DNA from: Terracidiphilus sp.
GTDB taxonomy: Bacteria; Acidobacteriota; Terriglobia; Terriglobales; Acidobacteriaceae
Direction: 5' to 3'
DNA: 64,000 nucleotides
Assembly (NCBI GenBank): GCA_036490385.1
Contig: DASXDX010000034.1
Location: 122,474-186,473 of the forward strand
Position numbers and translations under genes: made by a program. The notes below the pieces were generated by a model. That model was not told the origin of the DNA. It saw only the letters and a program-made list of their open reading frames with translations, and did not search any database. Below are positions 4,730 to 56,054 of this stretch, one piece after another; positions within the stretch are counted from its first letter, which is position 1, and each line of letters starts with the position of its first letter.

Positions 4730-7135
4730 ATGCGCGTCTTTGCGACACTCTTGCTCAGCCTCTTGTCAGCCCCTGTTCTTAACGCTCAGGCCGGCCCGCA
4801 TCCTGATCCGCAGCACCGCGACTGGCACGCCTCCTGGGTGACCCACCCTGCCGCACCGCTGCGGGAGCCGCTGGTGCTGCACTTCCGGCGGTCGCTTCTG
4901 CTGGCGGCCGCGCCCCAGACCTACATCGTGCGGGTGAGCGCCGATAACCGGTTCATTTTGTGGGTAAACGGCCGGCGCGTCGGCGATGGCCCGGCGCGGG
5001 GCGACCTGGCGCACTGGCGGTATGAGCGTTTCGACCTGGCTCCCTTTCTGCGCGCGGGCACGAATCTTGTGACGGCAACGGTCTGGAACTGGGGCGTTTA
5101 CGCGCCGATCGCGCAGATCAGCGACCGCACGGCCTTTCTCCTGGAGAGTGAGGGCGCGGCAGCCGATTCAATCAGCACGCCGGAGGGTTGGGAGGTCGAG
5201 GTCGAGCGCGGACACCGCCCCCTGGACCGCAGCTCCGTCGATCTGCGCACGTACATGGCCGCGGGACCGGGCGAAGAGCTCGATGCGGCGCAGTACGACT
5301 GGAAATGGCAATCGCCGGACGATGCGAGCGAGGCATGGGCTCCGGCCGCCACGCCGATGCGCGACAGCATTCACCCCGGCGTAAACAAAGCCCACTCGGC
5401 TGACACGACCGGCGACAACAGCTGGGGCCTGGTTCCGGACACGCTGCCGCACATGGAGTACACGCCGGTCAGCGCGGGCGAAGTAGTGCGGATGGATTCG
5501 ATTGCCAGCGAGCAGCCCGGCTTGCGCAAATTTCCAGAGTCTTCCGTCACATTGCCGCCGGGCATTCATGCGCATCTGCTGCTCGACCGCAAAACCCTTA
5601 CCACCGCATATCCCATCCTCGCCGTCTCCGGCGGCAAGGGCTCAAAGATCTGGCTCACCTATTCTGAAGCGCTCTACGACAAGGGGATGCACAAGGGCGA
5701 TCGCGACGAGGTGGGCAATCGCACGGCACACGGGTTGAAAGATTGCTTTTTGCCGGACGGCGGCGCCGATCGCGTCTTCGAGCCGCTCTGGTGGCGGACG
5801 TGGCGTTATCTCGATCTCGACATCACAACCAGCAGCGAGCCATTGCAGCTCGAATCGCTCACCGCCGCATTCACGGCGTATCCGTTTCAGGAAGACGCGC
5901 GTTTTGAATCGAGCGATCCTGACTTAGCGAAGATCTGGGAGATCAGTTGGCGCACGGCCCGGCTCGATGCGCATGAAACCTACATGGACACGCCCTACTA
6001 CGAGCAGCTCCAATACGTCGGCGACACGCGGATTCAGGCGCTGATCTCGTATGCGGTTGCAGGCGACGACCGGCTCGCGCGGCAGGCCCTGGAGGCGTTT
6101 GACGAGTCGCGCATTCCGGACGGGCTGACGCGCAGCCGCTATCCGAGCTCGCTGGCGCAGACGATTCCGACCTTTTCGCTGCTGTGGCTCGGCATGGTGC
6201 ACGACTGGTGGATGTATCGGCCCGATCCGGAGCCGGCGCGTGCTTCGCTTGAAGGAACCAGGGCGGTGCTGCACTGGTTTGCGCGCTACGAGCAGCCCGA
6301 TGGCTTGCTGGCAAAGCTGCCATGGTGGAGCTTCATTGACTGGGTGTCTGCGGGCGAAATTCCGACTTACGACGCCAAGGGCGAGTCGTGCATGACCACT
6401 CTTGAATATCTGGGCGCGCTCGATGACGCCGCCGATCTCGAAAAGGCGCTGGGCGATCCGTTGTTCGCCGGGCGATATCAAGCCCGCGCGGCGCATGTGC
6501 GGAGCGGCCTCTTTCAACAGTGCTGGAATGCGCAGCGCGGATTGCTGGCGGATACGCCGGACCGCAGCAGCTTCAGCCAGCAGGCAAACATTCTGGGCGT
6601 GCTTTACGACGTGATTCCGAAAGACCGGCAGAAGGATGTGCTCCAAAAGATATCGGCCATCGAACCCGGAACCGCGCCGGATGGGGTCCTGAGTGCGTCG
6701 TATTACTTCCGCTTCTATCTCGCGCGGGCGCTGGACCATGCCGGCATGGCAGACCAGTATCTCAGCTCGATTGAGCCGTGGCGCAAGCTGCTGGCCTTGC
6801 ACTTCAGCACCTGGCCTGAGGTTCCCGGCGACACGCGTTCGGACTCGCACGCCTGGAGCGCGCACCCGATCTACGACCTGCTGACGCTGGTGGCGGGCAT
6901 CGAGCCGGCCAGCCCGGGATTTGCGACCGTGCGGATCGCTCCGCATTTGGGATCGCTGCCCGCGTTGACTGCTGATTTTCCGCATCCGCAGGGCACGATC
7001 CATGTGGAGTATCGCCGCGAGAATGGCAAATTGAATGGGCTCGTGACGCTGCCTGGAACACTCACCGGAACCTTTCTTTACGAAGGCAAGGCGTGGCCGC
7101 TGAAGCCCGGCAGGAATCAGATCGAAGCTCGGTAA
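4730..7135 (+). CDS. Secreted glycoside hydrolase, GH78 alpha-L-rhamnosidase-like (six-hairpin catalytic domain)
   Basis: An ATG at 4730 gives the signal peptide MRVFATLLLSLLSAPVLNAQA. The motif MDTPYYEQLQYVGDTR matches the D-x-P-x-x-E...GD pattern of the GH78 catalytic domain. SHAWSAHPIYDL lies near the C-terminus, and a LacI regulator follows. The upstream 67 codons of the ORF look non-coding. Confidence 0.6.
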   Translation: MRVFATLLLSLLSAPVLNAQAGPHPDPQHRDWHASWVTHPAAPLREPLVLHFRRSLLLAAAPQTYIVRVSADNRFILWVNGRRVGDGPARGDLAHWRYERFDLAPFLRAGTNLVTATVWNWGVYAPIAQISDRTAFLLESEGAAADSISTPEGWEVEVERGHRPLDRSSVDLRTYMAAGPGEELDAAQYDWKWQSPDDASEAWAPAATPMRDSIHPGVNKAHSADTTGDNSWGLVPDTLPHMEYTPVSAGEVVRMDSIASEQPGLRKFPESSVTLPPGIHAHLLLDRKTLTTAYPILAVSGGKGSKIWLTYSEALYDKGMHKGDRDEVGNRTAHGLKDCFLPDGGADRVFEPLWWRTWRYLDLDITTSSEPLQLESLTAAFTAYPFQEDARFESSDPDLAKIWEISWRTARLDAHETYMDTPYYEQLQYVGDTRIQALISYAVAGDDRLARQALEAFDESRIPDGLTRSRYPSSLAQTIPTFSLLWLGMVHDWWMYRPDPEPARASLEGTRAVLHWFARYEQPDGLLAKLPWWSFIDWVSAGEIPTYDAKGESCMTTLEYLGALDDAADLEKALGDPLFAGRYQARAAHVRSGLFQQCWNAQRGLLADTPDRSSFSQQANILGVLYDVIPKDRQKDVLQKISAIEPGTAPDGVLSASYYFRFYLARALDHAGMADQYLSSIEPWRKLLALHFSTWPEVPGDTRSDSHAWSAHPIYDLLTLVAGIEPASPGFATVRIAPHLGSLPALTADFPHPQGTIHVEYRRENGKLNGLVTLPGTLTGTFLYEGKAWPLKPGRNQIEAR

Positions 7136-51686: not shown

Positions 51687-52211
51687 TTATGGCGCTCGAT
51701 CAAAAGTGGGGGCGAGGCCGAGCGCGCTCCAGAAACGGTCCAGAAGAGCCACGGTTTCGGGCAGCGTGGCCGGCGTAGTGCGAATCGCGATGCCCGGGCC
51801 GGCGGCCTCGGCTAGCGCGGCCGGCTCCGCGGCAATGGCGACGCACTGGCCCGGCCGATAGGTGCAGGAGGCCAGGTCGGCGATGGAGAGGCTCGTCGTG
51901 GGAGTGGCGAAGACGGCATGAGGCGGAGCCATGCGATCGAGCAGCCAGAGAATTTCCAGCTTTGATTCCAATTCGTCGGGGACGCAGTCGATGACCAGAT
52001 CCGCGGACCGAACGGCGTCCTCGACCGTCGACACGAAGGCCACGCCCGAAAGCGCGTCGGCGCTGAGCTCGCGGCGAATGCACTCCTGGGCATGACGCAA
52101 GTTCGACGGCATCACGTCTTCGAGCAGAACACGGAAACCGGCGCGGGCGGCACGCAAAGCAAGCGAGCGGCCGAGCGGGCCGGCTCCGATGATGGCGACG
52201 GTTTGCGGCAA
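51687..52211 (-). CDS. 3-hydroxyacyl-CoA dehydrogenase NAD-binding-domain protein (C-terminal domain absent)
   Basis: TVAIIGAGPLGRSLALRAARAGFRVLLEDV, ADLVIDCVPDELESKLEI and ATPTTSLSI are present. The protein ends at 174 aa, where the dimerisation domain normally begins. Confidence 0.6.
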   Translation of the reverse strand: MPQTVAIIGAGPLGRSLALRAARAGFRVLLEDVMPSNLRHAQECIRRELSADALSGVAFVSTVEDAVRSADLVIDCVPDELESKLEILWLLDRMAPPHAVFATPTTSLSIADLASCTYRPGQCVAIAAEPAALAEAAGPGIAIRTTPATLPETVALLDRFWSALGLAPTFDRAP

Positions 52212-52219
52212 GCGGTGGG

Positions 52220-52402
52220 TTACTTCGCGGCGAGCGCCTGAGCAACGTCGGCAGCATTCGGCCTTACCTGCTGCAGATGCTCAGCGATCCGGGCACGCTC
52301 CTCAGGAGAGAGCGTTGGGACGACGGCGAGGACGCGGCGCAACGTCACGGCGACGTCGTCAATGTAGTTCATCAGGCGGATGGCTTCTCCGGAAAGGGGC
52401 AT
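52220..52402 (-). CDS. Small hypothetical protein (60 aa)
   Basis: GAGGA lies ~8 nt upstream of the ATG at 52402. The helical sequence is MPLSGEAIRLMNYIDDVAVTLRRVLAVVPTLSPEERARIAEHLQQV, and the stop is 9 nt before the next gene. I recognise no family. Confidence 0.35.
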   Translation of the reverse strand: MPLSGEAIRLMNYIDDVAVTLRRVLAVVPTLSPEERARIAEHLQQVRPNAADVAQALAAK

Positions 52403-52853
52403 GGACTTTTTCCTCGAATCGTAAACTTCCGCTCTCATTGTAGGGGTTCGGGTTGGGGTGGTGGAAATCAGCCTGAGACCCCTCTCTGCGGTTCCGGCCC
52501 TGCTCGCGCGCGAGAAACGAGCAGTTGCAATCGCGGATGACGGTGCAGCACACCTCGCCTTCAGATCCAGGGAGATTGACGGGGAAGAAGCGGCGTGAGC
52601 ACAAGAACGGGCCGAGCCAAGTATCTGGATGAGTTTTGAATGAGAAGCTGCACAGCTTCATTAAGCTCCCAACCTGGGCGCCAGCCTGCGTAGGATCGAT
52701 CTCACTCAATAACTTCAATATCGTCAGCAATTTGTCAGAGGAGTGGCGACAAAGCGCAGCAACCGCACATTTGGCGAAGTGTGGCGATTCAATTGCAGCC
52801 GATCTGCATGCGGCACTCTCCGCGGGTACGACGGCGGACCACGGCAGGAGAAC

Positions 52854-55800
52854 ATGCGGAATCCAGGCGGTTGCCCTAGAGCACACGAATCTACTCACGA
52901 ATCTGCGCAGGAATTTACACCGGGTGAGGCGCCGAGAGCGGCCGCTTCGCTCGATCCCGGCGACTGGACCGGGTTTCGCGAACAGGCGCACCGCATGCTC
53001 GATGACATGCTGGATTCGATCGAGCACATCCGTGAAGCGCCGGTCTGGCAGCCGATTCCCGAGCAGGTGCGCGCGCACTTCCGCAGCGAATTGCCGGCCA
53101 AACCGACGGCGCTGGACCAGCTTCACCAGGAGTTCATGACGCACATTGTGCCGTTCACGGCGCGCAATGCGCATCCGGGATTTATGGCGTGGGTGCAGGG
53201 CGGCGGTACCGCCGTAGGCATGCTGGCCGAGATGCTGGCCGCCGGCCTCAATGCCAACCTGGGCGGGCGCGACCAGATCCCGCTTGAAGTCGAGCGGCAG
53301 GTCGTCGAGTGGATGCGCAAGCTGTTTGGCTTTCCCGCAGCAGCCTCGGGCATCCTGGTCACCGGCAGTTCGATGGCAAACTTCATGGCGGTGAAGATCG
53401 CGCGGGACGCGAGCATTGGCAGCGATGTCCGCCGCCAGGGGGTAGCGCAGCAGCCGCAAAGATTGACCGCCTATAGCTCCACCGCCGTCCATGGATGTGC
53501 AGCCCAGGCGCTGGATCTTGCCGGCCTGGGCAGCGATTCTCTTCGTCTCATCCCCGTAGACAGCCGTAATCGCATCGATCTCGAGGCTCTGGCTCAAACT
53601 GTCGCCTCGGATCGGGCTGCGGGCTTCACTCCCTTTCTCGTAATCGGCACTGCGGGAACGGTGGATACGGGCGCCATCGATGACCTCGCCGGCCTCGCCG
53701 CATTTTGCGGCGCGCAACAACTCTGGTTTCACGTCGACGGCGCCTGCGGAGCGATGGGTATGCTGGCTCCCGAAGTGGCGCCCCGGCTCAACGGGATCGA
53801 ACTGGCCGATTCGCTGGCCTTCGATTTTCACAAATGGGGTCAGGTGCCTTATGACGCCGGTTTCCTGCTGGTGCGCGATGGCGCCCGCCATCGGCAGTCG
53901 TTTGGCTCCTCAGCCGCTTATCTCGCGCGCGAGGACCGCGGCATGTCTGCCGGTTCACCGTGGCCCTGTGACCTTGGCCCCGATCTGTCCCGCGGCTTCC
54001 GCGCGCTGAAGACCTGGGCAACATTCAAAGCTTACGGAACTGAGAGGATGGGTGCGGTTATCGCCAACACGTGCACGCTGGCGCGCTATCTCGAAGGCCG
54101 CATCGCCGCCTATCCGGAGCTGGAATTGCTGGCTCCAGTCGAGCTGAATATCGTCTGTTTCCGCTATCGGGGCGCAACCAGCGCCGGCCCCGCAACTGAG
54201 AATTTCCTGAACCAGGTTAACCGCGAAATCGTCATCCGGCTGCAGGAGTCCGGCGCTGTGGCTCCCTCTACGACCCAGATCGGCGGCAGCCTCGCCATTC
54301 GCGCCGCCATCGTGAATCACCGTACCACGCACGCCGATATCGACACCCTGATAGAAGCTGTTTTGTCGGCCGGCAGGTCGCTGCGCCCTGCTGCAACCCG
54401 CCCGGAACCGCCTCGCGCAAAAACCGGCGAAAAAATGTGGCAACCCTGGGTCAAGCGCAATACGAGGCTCGAAGTCATTGACTCCCAGCTTGATTCGCAC
54501 GATGGTATCGAGAAGAAAACCGAAGTTGCGCTGCGTTTCGAGCGCGCGATGCTGCTCACCCAGCAGGGACGCACTCTGGAGGCACGCAGCGAACATCTCA
54601 AAGTGGTCGCGCTCGATCCCTTCAATCTGCGCAACCTTAACGCTCTCGGACTGCTGCTCGCCGTAACCGGCAACCGGAAAGCGGCGCTCATTGCCCTGAA
54701 CCAGGCGGTGCAAGCCGCGCCTGAATCGATCCTGAGCCGCGTCAATTATGGCGGCGTCCTGCTCGAAGAGCATGATGCCGCTGCGGCTCTCGAGCAATTT
54801 GAAGCGGCGTTGCGCATCGATCCCTCCTCTCCGCAGGCGCATGCGGGCATGTTTTACGCGCTGAGCAGGCTGGGAGACCGGGAGAACGCGGAGCTGCATC
54901 GCCGGCTGGGCTTCGAGCAGAAGAATGTCTTCGTCAACCTCTACCGCGGCACTGGGCAACCTGTCCCGGTGGTGCTGCTGGTTTCCTCCACCGGGGGCAA
55001 TACTCCCATCGAGAAACTCATCGACGACACGGTCTTTCAGACCTACGTGATCGTCGCCGAATTCTACGACGCCCAAAACCCGCTGCCGGAACACCGGCTG
55101 GTCATAAACGGCATCGGCGATGTCGAAGTCTCCGAAGAAGCGTTGCGCGCGGCTCAGTCTTTGCTCACGCAAGCGTCGGCGCCGGTGATCAACTCGCCGG
55201 CAGCCGTGCTGGAGACTGGACGCTGTGAGAACGCCGCGCGCCTGCGCGCCATTCCCGGCATCGTCACACCGGAGACGCAGTTGTTTCCCTATTCCCTGCT
55301 CGCCGGGCCTGACGGTGCCGCAGCGCTTCTCGATCGCGGCTTCAACTTTCCGCTGCTGTTGCGCGTACCGGGCTTTCACATGGGCGAGCATTTCGTCGAC
55401 GTTTCGGCGTCCGACGCGCTGCCAGCCGCGGTTGCCGGGCTGCCGGCCGCGGTTGCGGGGCTGCCGGGCGCAGCGCCCACCGATGCGCAACTGCTGGCCA
55501 TCGAGTACCTGGACGCACGCGGCGCGGACGGCTGCTTCCGCAAATACCGCGTGATGATGATCGATGGCGAGCTTTATCCGTTGCACCTGGCCATCTCGTC
55601 GCATTGGAAGATTCACTATTTCAGCGCCGATATGAAGGACAAGCCCGACCACCGCGCCGAGGAAACGGTCTTCCTCACGGATATGCCCGGCGTTCTGGGC
55701 CGGCGCGCGATGGACGCGTTGCGGCAGTTGCAGACGGCGCTTGGCCTGGACTATGCGGGCGTCGACTTCGGGCTCAGCCAGGATGGCGACGTTCTGCTCT

Positions 55801-55985
55801 TTGAAGCCAACGCGACCATGGTGGTCCAGCATCCCGATCCAGACGAAACCTGGGCTTACCGGCGTCCCGCTGTCGACCGCATTCATGGTGCAGTGCGGCG
55901 GATGTTATTGAGAAAGGCGGGCGTCTCCACACCCATGACTGGCGAAGACCGTCTTGCGCCGGTTGAATCTGCTCTACCTGGCTGA
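52854..55985 (+). CDS. Three-module fusion protein: group II PLP-dependent decarboxylase + TPR repeats + ATP-grasp-like ligase domain
   Basis: AGGAG lies 6 nt upstream of the ATG at 52854. The N-terminal ~480 aa read HPGFMAWVQGGGTAVGMLAEMLAAGLN ... GILVTGSSMANFMAVKIARD ... FHVDGACGA ... AFDFHKWGQVPYDAG, with the PLP-Lys codon at 53832-53834. The middle has TPR repeats (LEARSEHLKVVALDPFNLRNLNALGLLLAVTGNRKAALIALNQAVQAAPES...). The C-terminal ~320 aa read FPLLLRVPGFHMGEHF ... YRVMMIDGELYPLHLAIS ... GLDYAGVDFGLSQDGDVLLFEANATMVV, which follows the ATP-grasp pattern. Confidence 0.7.
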   Translation: MRNPGGCPRAHESTHESAQEFTPGEAPRAAASLDPGDWTGFREQAHRMLDDMLDSIEHIREAPVWQPIPEQVRAHFRSELPAKPTALDQLHQEFMTHIVPFTARNAHPGFMAWVQGGGTAVGMLAEMLAAGLNANLGGRDQIPLEVERQVVEWMRKLFGFPAAASGILVTGSSMANFMAVKIARDASIGSDVRRQGVAQQPQRLTAYSSTAVHGCAAQALDLAGLGSDSLRLIPVDSRNRIDLEALAQTVASDRAAGFTPFLVIGTAGTVDTGAIDDLAGLAAFCGAQQLWFHVDGACGAMGMLAPEVAPRLNGIELADSLAFDFHKWGQVPYDAGFLLVRDGARHRQSFGSSAAYLAREDRGMSAGSPWPCDLGPDLSRGFRALKTWATFKAYGTERMGAVIANTCTLARYLEGRIAAYPELELLAPVELNIVCFRYRGATSAGPATENFLNQVNREIVIRLQESGAVAPSTTQIGGSLAIRAAIVNHRTTHADIDTLIEAVLSAGRSLRPAATRPEPPRAKTGEKMWQPWVKRNTRLEVIDSQLDSHDGIEKKTEVALRFERAMLLTQQGRTLEARSEHLKVVALDPFNLRNLNALGLLLAVTGNRKAALIALNQAVQAAPESILSRVNYGGVLLEEHDAAAALEQFEAALRIDPSSPQAHAGMFYALSRLGDRENAELHRRLGFEQKNVFVNLYRGTGQPVPVVLLVSSTGGNTPIEKLIDDTVFQTYVIVAEFYDAQNPLPEHRLVINGIGDVEVSEEALRAAQSLLTQASAPVINSPAAVLETGRCENAARLRAIPGIVTPETQLFPYSLLAGPDGAAALLDRGFNFPLLLRVPGFHMGEHFVDVSASDALPAAVAGLPAAVAGLPGAAPTDAQLLAIEYLDARGADGCFRKYRVMMIDGELYPLHLAISSHWKIHYFSADMKDKPDHRAEETVFLTDMPGVLGRRAMDALRQLQTALGLDYAGVDFGLSQDGDVLLFEANATMVVQHPDPDETWAYRRPAVDRIHGAVRRMLLRKAGVSTPMTGEDRLAPVESALPG

Positions 55986-56054
55986 AGAAGGAGCGTGGTT
56001 CCACCCGCCAGGCGATGCTTCGCCTTATTTTCGCTCTTCCGCTATAATTTATCT

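Follow-up and report, generated by a model that had tools for sequence, protein, structure and literature searches.

A decarboxylase-TPR-ATP-grasp fusion protein of Terracidiphilus sp. as a candidate bifunctional amine-forming and amide-forming enzyme

Background

In methanofuran biosynthesis, MfnA, a pyridoxal 5'-phosphate (PLP)-dependent tyrosine decarboxylase of family PF00282, is followed by MfnD, an ATP-grasp tyramine:L-glutamate ligase (PMC8141765). Domains of the same two superfamilies, with a tetratricopeptide repeat (TPR) array between them, make up a single 1043-residue protein encoded in the stretch of DNA analysed here (the window), which comprises 64,000 nucleotides of contig DASXDX010000034.1 from Terracidiphilus sp. 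(Acidobacteriaceae). On balance we favour, with modest confidence, the reading that this protein is a bifunctional enzyme in which both catalytic halves belong to one pathway, with decarboxylation first and ATP-dependent amidation second.

The MfnA/MfnD pair is the closest functional precedent for the proposed reaction logic, in that the amine formed by a PF00282 decarboxylase is linked to a carboxylate by an ATP-grasp enzyme. However, MfnA and MfnD are separate proteins without TPRs, and the window protein is orthologous to neither. Its decarboxylase domain was rejected as a member of the MfnA family (TIGR03812; 68.1 bits, cut-off 299.4), none of the curated ATP-grasp families matches its ligase domain, and methanofuran or methylofuran genes are absent nearby.

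Structurally, the best matches of the ligase domain are RimK and LysX/ArgX, with the catalytic motifs of RimK in register. The acyl donor of these enzymes is a protein carboxylate (a C-terminal Glu), which fits a TPR module for substrate binding. They differ in using an amino acid rather than an amine as nucleophile, in lacking TPRs and a decarboxylase, and in the two ATP-binding Lys residues, both of which are Arg in the window domain. Since Ddl enzymes match structurally almost as well, the fold cannot tell protein from small-molecule substrates. A comparable modular plan is found in the flagellin glycosyltransferase FlmG, whose N-terminal TPRs bind flagellin while the fused catalytic domain modifies it (PMC7591256). 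That catalytic domain is a GT-B glycosyltransferase, whereas the window protein has an ATP-grasp domain; the flagellar system proposed below would be a chemical analogue of FlmG.

A third parallel is offered by the BtrJ/BtrI/BtrK, CtaD-F and FlvN/L/O systems, in which an ATP-dependent ligation tethers Glu or Asp by the side chain and a PLP decarboxylase then acts on it (PMC11350588). Like the window protein, BtrJ/BtrK combine an ATP-dependent carboxylate-activating ligase and a PLP decarboxylase in one short pathway, but the order is opposite to that of our favoured model and a carrier protein is needed, of which none is conserved here. What is new at this locus is the architecture and a divergent ligase family outside the curated models; the three superfamilies are known and the chemistry has precedent. 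A literature search, which did not cover the 2009 amidoligase survey, found no work combining ATP-grasp with TPR and decarboxylase or with flagellin. This agrees with an earlier reading made from the DNA letters alone (the sequence-only reading), whose authoring model knew of no characterised enzyme of this architecture. It had also held that its proposal would fall if the architecture were both common and characterised: common it is, with more than 1000 protein clusters, and a characterised enzyme was not found.

Fused, split and reversed arrangements of the two genes

The full-length protein retrieved 1162 proteins at E<=1e-5. The best 120 of these 1162 homologues are 840-1127 aa long and 60-100% identical to the query, which they cover over 81-100% of its length. 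Few have a named source (Acidobacteriaceae, Terracidiphilus), and the automatic names given by the Joint Genome Institute already carry all three COG parts. Species-representative genomes were searched with the C-terminal domain, which occurs in at least 441 places, and the best 80 loci were compared. About 36 of the 80 (from Acidobacteriaceae, Bryobacterales and other Terriglobia) carry a continuous fusion in the same frame, including one on the finished chromosome of Tunturiibacter psychrotolerans X4BP1 (NZ_CP132941.1, L075). The window protein itself is present, identical, in two assemblies of one sample, one copy lying on a 720-kb metagenome contig. The view of the sequence-only reading that the fusion is real is therefore borne out.

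Other loci carry the two halves as neighbouring genes, an arrangement which that reading had proposed to look for and which takes the form of translationally coupled pairs and one locus of reversed order. In at least 10 of the 80 loci, a separate decarboxylase gene (product 55-67% identical) lies directly upstream of a TPR-ATP-grasp gene, and at least seven of these split loci switch frame precisely where the two domains meet (aa 510-529). At the junctions, stop and start codons overlap by 4 nt (ATGA, GTGA or TTGA), at the position of the interdomain linker of the fusion; one junction reads ...TATGACTAG overlapping ATG ACT AGT TGG (MTSWAP), and the same type of overlap is seen at 6533-6536 of an independently called pair (L098). 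The N-termini of the split TPR-ATP-grasp proteins, MTSWAP and SNWQP (xWxP), correspond to M528-W-Q-P-W of the window protein, and the W-Q-P-W motif that opens its TPR array also opens separate TPR-ATP-grasp genes elsewhere. In L026 (Bryobacterales) the order is reversed, with TPR-ATP-grasp preceding the decarboxylase, and in L084 and L092 both genes are found nearby in other arrangements. Together with L077, the latter two extend the linkage from Acidobacteriaceae and Bryobacterales to Alphaproteobacteria.

No conserved third gene for a substrate, carrier or transporter was found by clustering the open reading frames (ORFs) of the 80 loci or in two Pfam censuses of their neighbours. The sole recurrent neighbours were extra TPR proteins (5-6 of 129 nearest) and MotA, the most frequent family among second-nearest neighbours (4 of 122). 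An FAD oxidoreductase gene precedes two of the fusions (L006, L007); it was considered as a partner and discarded, as it does not recur. Because fused, coupled and reversed arrangements are found across two phyla and no other neighbour is conserved, gene order supports the view that decarboxylase and ligase would serve one pathway.

Three loci contain, beside the decarboxylase and TPR-ATP-grasp genes, a TPR-less ATP-grasp paralogue (L026 8597-9850, L084 7672-8922, L092 3106-4344). It is about 30% identical to the C-terminal domain of the window protein and matches no Pfam family; identity among the three copies is 47-57%, and their last-strand motif is FE(V/A/T)xxGM as compared with FEANATM. 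It is accompanied by a Formyl_trans_N protein in L084 and by a fusion of AhpC/TSA and 2OG-FeII_Oxy_3 domains in L092.

The three modules of the protein

The gene and the parts of its product are as follows.

52854..55985, + strand: whole gene of the decarboxylase-TPR-ATP-grasp fusion, 1043 aa, stop codon included (uninterrupted ORF; homologues).
52947..54389, + strand: group II (fold type I) PLP-dependent decarboxylase domain, aa 32-512 (PF00282 match; solved relatives; invariant catalytic residues).
53832..53834, + strand: codon of K327, the predicted PLP Schiff-base lysine, in the motif DFHKW (aligned to DAHKW of 4obu; invariant).
54390..54431, + strand: flexible interdomain linker, aa 513-526, of varying length among homologues (predicted local distance difference test score, pLDDT, below 50 in the full-length model; variable alignment columns).
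54432..54914, + strand: TPR array, aa 527-687, nine helices or about 4.5 repeats, opening with W-Q-P-W (Pfam hits; models).
54921..55916, + strand: predicted ATP-grasp ligase domain, aa 690-1021, with pre-ATP-grasp, RAGNYA and kinase-like subdomains (AlphaFold, Foldseek, hhalign).
55362..55364, + strand: R837, the basic residue that ends RAGNYA strand 2 (Arg for the usual Lys), followed by the G840...G844 loop (aligned with RimK K141).
55542..55550, + strand: K897-Y-R899, R899 being the conserved Arg of the first kinase-like strand (aligned with RimK D-I-R).
55764..55811, + strand: putative Mg/ATP site D971 ... E984-A-N986, with the D-x12-E-x-N spacing of DdlB (hhalign; conservation).

The N-terminal domain matches Pfam Pyridoxal_deC (PF00282) at aa 69-439 over all 375 profile positions (E=8.5e-62; 209.5 bits, cut-off 27). 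Its best solved relative is the Ruminococcus Trp decarboxylase 4obu (4.8e-65), followed by DOPA and Tyr decarboxylases (range to 1e-51). Residues H213, D295, H326-K327, Y356 and R380 align with their counterparts in the solved relatives and are invariant in 47 fusion proteins. The Asp that faces the pyridine nitrogen (D295, in HVDGA) and the PLP-stacking His (H213) are the same residues in 4obu, and Y356 (AAYL) pairs with the Tyr of PEYL in 4obu, the catalytic-loop Tyr that protonates the quinonoid. From work on plant aromatic amino acid decarboxylases, Phe at this position is known to yield aldehyde synthases. Based on this alignment and invariance, the N-terminal domain should be active as a decarboxylase.

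The TPR array was recognised both by profiles and by modelling. Pfam TPR_2, TPR_14 and TPR_19 match aa 545-680, with TPR_2 at 29.7 bits (cut-off 27) and TPR_14 at 26.4 (cut-off 23.5), and nine consecutive helices span aa 530-687 in both AlphaFold models. One of these, of aa 523-1043, was built from 41 sequences and is of high quality (pLDDT 90; predicted template modelling score, pTM, 0.88), with the TPR and ligase modules as one rigid unit. The other, of the full-length protein, reached a pLDDT of 75 and a pTM of 0.53, with a disordered linker at aa 513-526.

The C-terminal domain was identified by its predicted structure. Among curated sequence models the best matches were all below threshold (R2K_3, E=0.088; rimK_fam, 0.068; ATPgrasp_ST, 0.15) and confined to the last, Mg-binding strand, while the PDB gave no significant match either to phmmer or to a 21-sequence profile (E>=0.38). 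Membership of the RimK family was likewise rejected (TIGR00768; 12.5 bits against a cut-off of 143.4). When the model of aa 523-1043 was compared with the PDB by Foldseek, the top 50 matches were all ATP-grasp proteins (probability 1.00, E 1e-8 to 6e-7), with template modelling (TM) scores on target up to 0.61. They include RimK (5zct; E=1.1e-8, TM 0.59 on target), LysX/ArgX (5k2m, 3vpb), DdlA/B, VanA/G, synapsin, PsnB and BacD. As sequence searches were empty or below threshold, structure prediction and Foldseek alone settle the identity of this domain, which on the model is confidently an ATP-grasp fold.

Alignment of a diverse family profile with E. coli RimK and DdlB by hhalign was weak (E ~2e-3 to 4e-3, probability below 15%), with the motifs in register. 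D971, E984 and N986 pair with D248, E260 and N262 of RimK and with D257, E270 and N272 of DdlB, and the segment IEYLD pairs with the RimK hinge QEYIK. Seven residues (R790, R837, K897, R899, D971, E984 and N986) are invariant in 40 relatives at 31-50% identity. One of them, R790, in the linker between the pre-ATP-grasp and RAGNYA subdomains, lies one column off RimK K100 in this low-confidence alignment. The loop PGFHMGEHF has the right length of nine residues and the invariant G840 and G844, and differs from the ssxGbGl consensus. Such strict invariance of the D/E-x-N triad and the basic residues is as expected of a working enzyme, and the domain is probably competent as a ligase.

The ATP-grasp superfamily template has an acidic residue in strand 4 of the kinase-like domain and ExN in the last strand; members of the R2K clade (CDC123, R2K.2 and R2K.3), which are predicted protein-peptide ligases, lack a basic residue in the pre-ATP-grasp linker and have a second Lys in the loop, and R2K.3 has ExGD in place of ExN (PMC4431377). 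The window domain resembles this clade in the weak R2K_3 match to its Mg-binding strand, but differs from it in having ExN, an invariant linker Arg and a 9-residue G-containing loop, and from these features it is predicted to follow the classical template rather than that of R2K. R2K.3 itself (PF14243) was rejected on the same residues and on score (13.4 bits against 26.3).

The sequence-only reading had described a complete group II decarboxylase module, TPR repeats and an ATP-grasp-like C-terminus, quoting motifs for the first and last. Each quoted motif lies where it was reported, including the K327 codon, and the decarboxylase (full PF00282 profile, all catalytic residues present) and TPR assignments were confirmed. 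For the C-terminus the fold stood, on the model and on Foldseek, and significant similarity to a curated sequence family did not. A channel linking the two active sites, or their juxtaposition, which that reading had proposed to look for, was not seen with confidence in the full-length model, and its pTM and disordered linker permit no statement on either.

Each module outside the fusion

The family of TPR-ATP-grasp proteins gave 5068 matches in 2696 clusters at 50% identity, most of them 450-600 aa long, and the decarboxylase fusion accounts for 1 of the 150 TPR-ATP-grasp clusters listed. The TPR-ATP-grasp unit is the older and much larger family, mostly without a decarboxylase. Stand-alone decarboxylase genes, for their part, have a conserved context, gap - pgk - (PGA_cap) - decarboxylase - NUDIX ... 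Nramp. The fusion would thus join two activities that existed before it.

Some members of the TPR-ATP-grasp family have further peculiarities. The gene of a large multi-TPR protein (about 600 aa), divergently transcribed, adjoins several stand-alone TPR-ATP-grasp genes (L002-L004, 6017-7810, - strand; L015, 3453-5354, - strand). P0281 and P0367 add a C-terminal nucleotidyltransferase-like domain (NTP_transf_2/ANT-like, a weak match), with 45% identity over the extension, and P0241 is a tandem duplicate of TPR-ATP-grasp. The 500-aa C-terminal extension of P0244 has no match in PDB or NCBIfam. P0250 was considered as a second fusion with a PLP enzyme and set aside: its C-terminal Aminotran_5 domain is a genuine SerC (547 bits), met with a single time, and probably reflects adjacency or a gene-call artefact.

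Proposed reactions and alternative explanations

In the pathway that we favour, the PLP domain, which is closest to aromatic-amino-acid decarboxylases, would turn an L-amino acid into a primary amine. The ATP-grasp domain would then phosphorylate a carboxylate and couple the resulting acyl-phosphate to the amine, so that an amide is formed. Packed on the ligase in the model, the TPR array would present the carboxylate partner, likeliest a peptide, a protein or a protein-linked glycan, or else serve in assembly. Which reaction comes first, and what the TPR array does, we infer; that its partner may be a peptide or protein is suggested by RimK and LysX/ArgX, the best structural matches, which use a protein C-terminal Glu as acyl donor. 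The sequence-only reading had reasoned similarly, with the amine as nucleophile of the ligase and the TPRs selecting a peptide or protein, in what might amount to RimK-like tailing.

Several observations weigh against this proposal. Most TPR-ATP-grasp members have no decarboxylase within 6-8 kb, and decarboxylases 67-69% identical to the fused domain stand alone with no ATP-grasp gene (L095, L096, L097; 5001-6490 in each), from which it follows that each half can also work independently. The two active sites have no fixed relation in the full-length model. Arg stands in for each of the two canonical ATP-binding Lys residues. The substrate of the decarboxylase is not readable from its sequence: no NCBIfam equivalog was reached (2,4-diaminobutyrate decarboxylase, 162 bits against 900; PanP, 122 against 606), and the substrate-pocket motif of the window protein, GFMAWVQGGGT, is presumably unlike that of aromatic L-amino acid, glutamate or histidine decarboxylases.

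Some of these points lend themselves to a different explanation, which we consider unlikely, namely that the halves do not catalyse consecutive steps. The fusion would then only co-regulate or co-localise them, or the C-terminal domain would be a non-catalytic ATP-binding regulator like synapsin, a non-ligase ATP-grasp protein that is among the top structural matches. The abundance of both modules on their own, the replacement of both Lys by Arg and the lack of a predicted interdomain geometry are all in keeping with it. Against it, fusions, operons with 4-nt overlaps and reversed order recur across two phyla with nothing else conserved, a pattern typical of pathway coupling, and the Mg-binding triad and the basic residues are strictly invariant.

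Gene linkage is silent on which step comes first, and the two reactions could also run in the order known from BtrJ/BtrK. The ligase would then activate the side-chain carboxylate of an acidic amino acid and by it tether the residue to an acceptor, be it an amine, a carrier protein or a TPR-held protein, and the decarboxylase would remove the alpha-carboxylate, leaving an amide of the gamma-aminobutyrate or beta-alanine type. The TPR array could well hold a carrier protein, and decarboxylation of tethered Glu or Asp after ATP-dependent ligation has precedents (PMC11350588). On the other side, the decarboxylase domain of the window protein is closest to aromatic decarboxylases of free amino acids, and its relatives at 67-69% identity without a ligase partner likewise favour a free amino acid as substrate. 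BtrK, moreover, is of a different decarboxylase fold, which counts against the comparison. Given that no carrier-protein gene is conserved nearby and that close relatives of the decarboxylase act alone, we regard this order as quite improbable.

That a frameshift or lost stop in sequencing or assembly joined two adjacent genes, as a single indel in one of the split versions with 4-nt overlaps could do, and as frameshifts within domains at related loci (L034, L053, L083, L088) might suggest, is excluded for the fusion class and very unlikely for the window, since the same frame is found in about 36 of 80 genomes, on a finished chromosome and in more than 1000 protein clusters of independent projects, the identical protein recurs in a second, independent assembly of the sample, and the linker is a normal variable peptide.

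If the favoured pathway, decarboxylation followed by amidation, is correct, the protein would be a self-contained enzyme that makes an amine and installs it, abundant in Acidobacteriota, a dominant and poorly understood soil phylum. Knowledge of the amine and its acceptor would establish a new amide metabolite or a new modification of proteins or glycans, and thousands of proteins whose present annotation reads only 'tetratricopeptide repeat protein' or 'pyridoxal-dependent decarboxylase' would gain a function. The locus further draws attention to a large family of ATP-grasp proteins (about 2700 clusters at 50% identity) for which Pfam and NCBIfam have no model. The fused, split and reversed arrangements together make a clean prediction of pathway coupling, and a flagellar neighbourhood provides the first candidate for the target.

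Flagellar genes near some of the loci

Among 50 decarboxylase-linked loci, 11 have flagellar or motility genes within about 6 kb, as compared with 1 among 30 stand-alone loci (one-sided Fisher p=0.02, shared ancestry uncorrected). Set against a generous background of 3%, the association has a binomial p of 2e-7, again uncorrected for shared ancestry. FliC, FliD or FlgL are found near L019, L029, L051, L084, L085 and L092, with fliC of L019 directly downstream on the same strand, and MotA or MotB near L021, L023, L027, L031 and L036. In L007, FliS-FliD-FliC lie 4 kb from the fusion. The alphaproteobacterial L084 lies within a flagellar cluster in the order flagellin, decarboxylase, flagellin, FlbT, TPR-ATP-grasp, Formyl_trans_N and ATP-grasp paralogue, with an FlgJ-like gene later on, and the set of genes in L092, which includes a P4H-like 2-oxoglutarate oxygenase, ends beside a flagellin gene.

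The flagellar link is a minority association of the loci, and no flagellar genes are present in the 64-kb window. A tentative proposal, in our assessment rather doubtful, is that the module is a post-translational or glycan modification system in which the TPRs bind a flagellar protein such as flagellin and the ligase amidates it with the amine made by the decarboxylase. The carboxylate concerned may be that of the C-terminus or of an Asp or Glu side chain, or may belong to a nonulosonic or uronic acid of the glycan that the flagellar protein carries.

Start codon, flanking genes and repeats

The frame on the + strand runs uninterrupted from 52743 (GTG) or 52854 (ATG) to 55985. The single 1043-codon frame and good ribosome-binding site of the sequence-only reading were both found again, as were the neighbours that it described, with two ORFs upstream on the - strand and uvrB downstream. 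The signals flanking the gene are the following.

52846..52850, + strand: Shine-Dalgarno-like AGGAG, 3 nt 5' of ATG 52854 (sequence reading; N-terminal lengths of homologues agree).
56010..56025, + strand: terminator-like hairpin and T-run, 25 nt past the stop codon and ahead of uvrB (consensus scan, pattern match only).

Ahead of the conserved SLDP motif the window protein has 32 residues, as compared with 13-63 (median about 24) in 47 aligned homologues. As these lengths bracket it, ATG 52854 is a plausible start codon. The public gene call begins 47 codons past this likely start, at M48 (window 52995), and the resulting 996-aa protein lacks the conserved SLDPxDW...FR helix at the N-terminus of the decarboxylase. 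The 415-nt intergenic region upstream (to 52853) yielded no sigma-70-like promoter when one was sought; a riboswitch or structured leader there was discarded (no Rfam match at E<=1, folding z-score +0.75).

The farther of the two upstream ORFs (51687-52211, - strand, 174 aa) has 3HCDH_N, an NAD-binding domain, as its only domain and is on that account a truncated 3-hydroxyacyl-CoA dehydrogenase. Between it and the fusion gene lies a 72-aa ORF (52220-52438, - strand) that matches no family.

Two short repeats occur within the coding sequence. A 12-bp repeat of 2.9 copies (window 52884-52918) codes for the HESTHES segment of the unconserved, disordered N-terminal tail (pLDDT about 30). The second is in the ATP-grasp domain:

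55418..55471, + strand: in-frame 21-bp tandem duplication, 2.6 copies with 90% matches, coding for LPAAVAG-LPAAVAG (Tandem Repeats Finder score 87).

It falls in a surface loop of the domain, with low pLDDT at 852-856, and the homologues are single-copy here, leaving a gap in the alignment.

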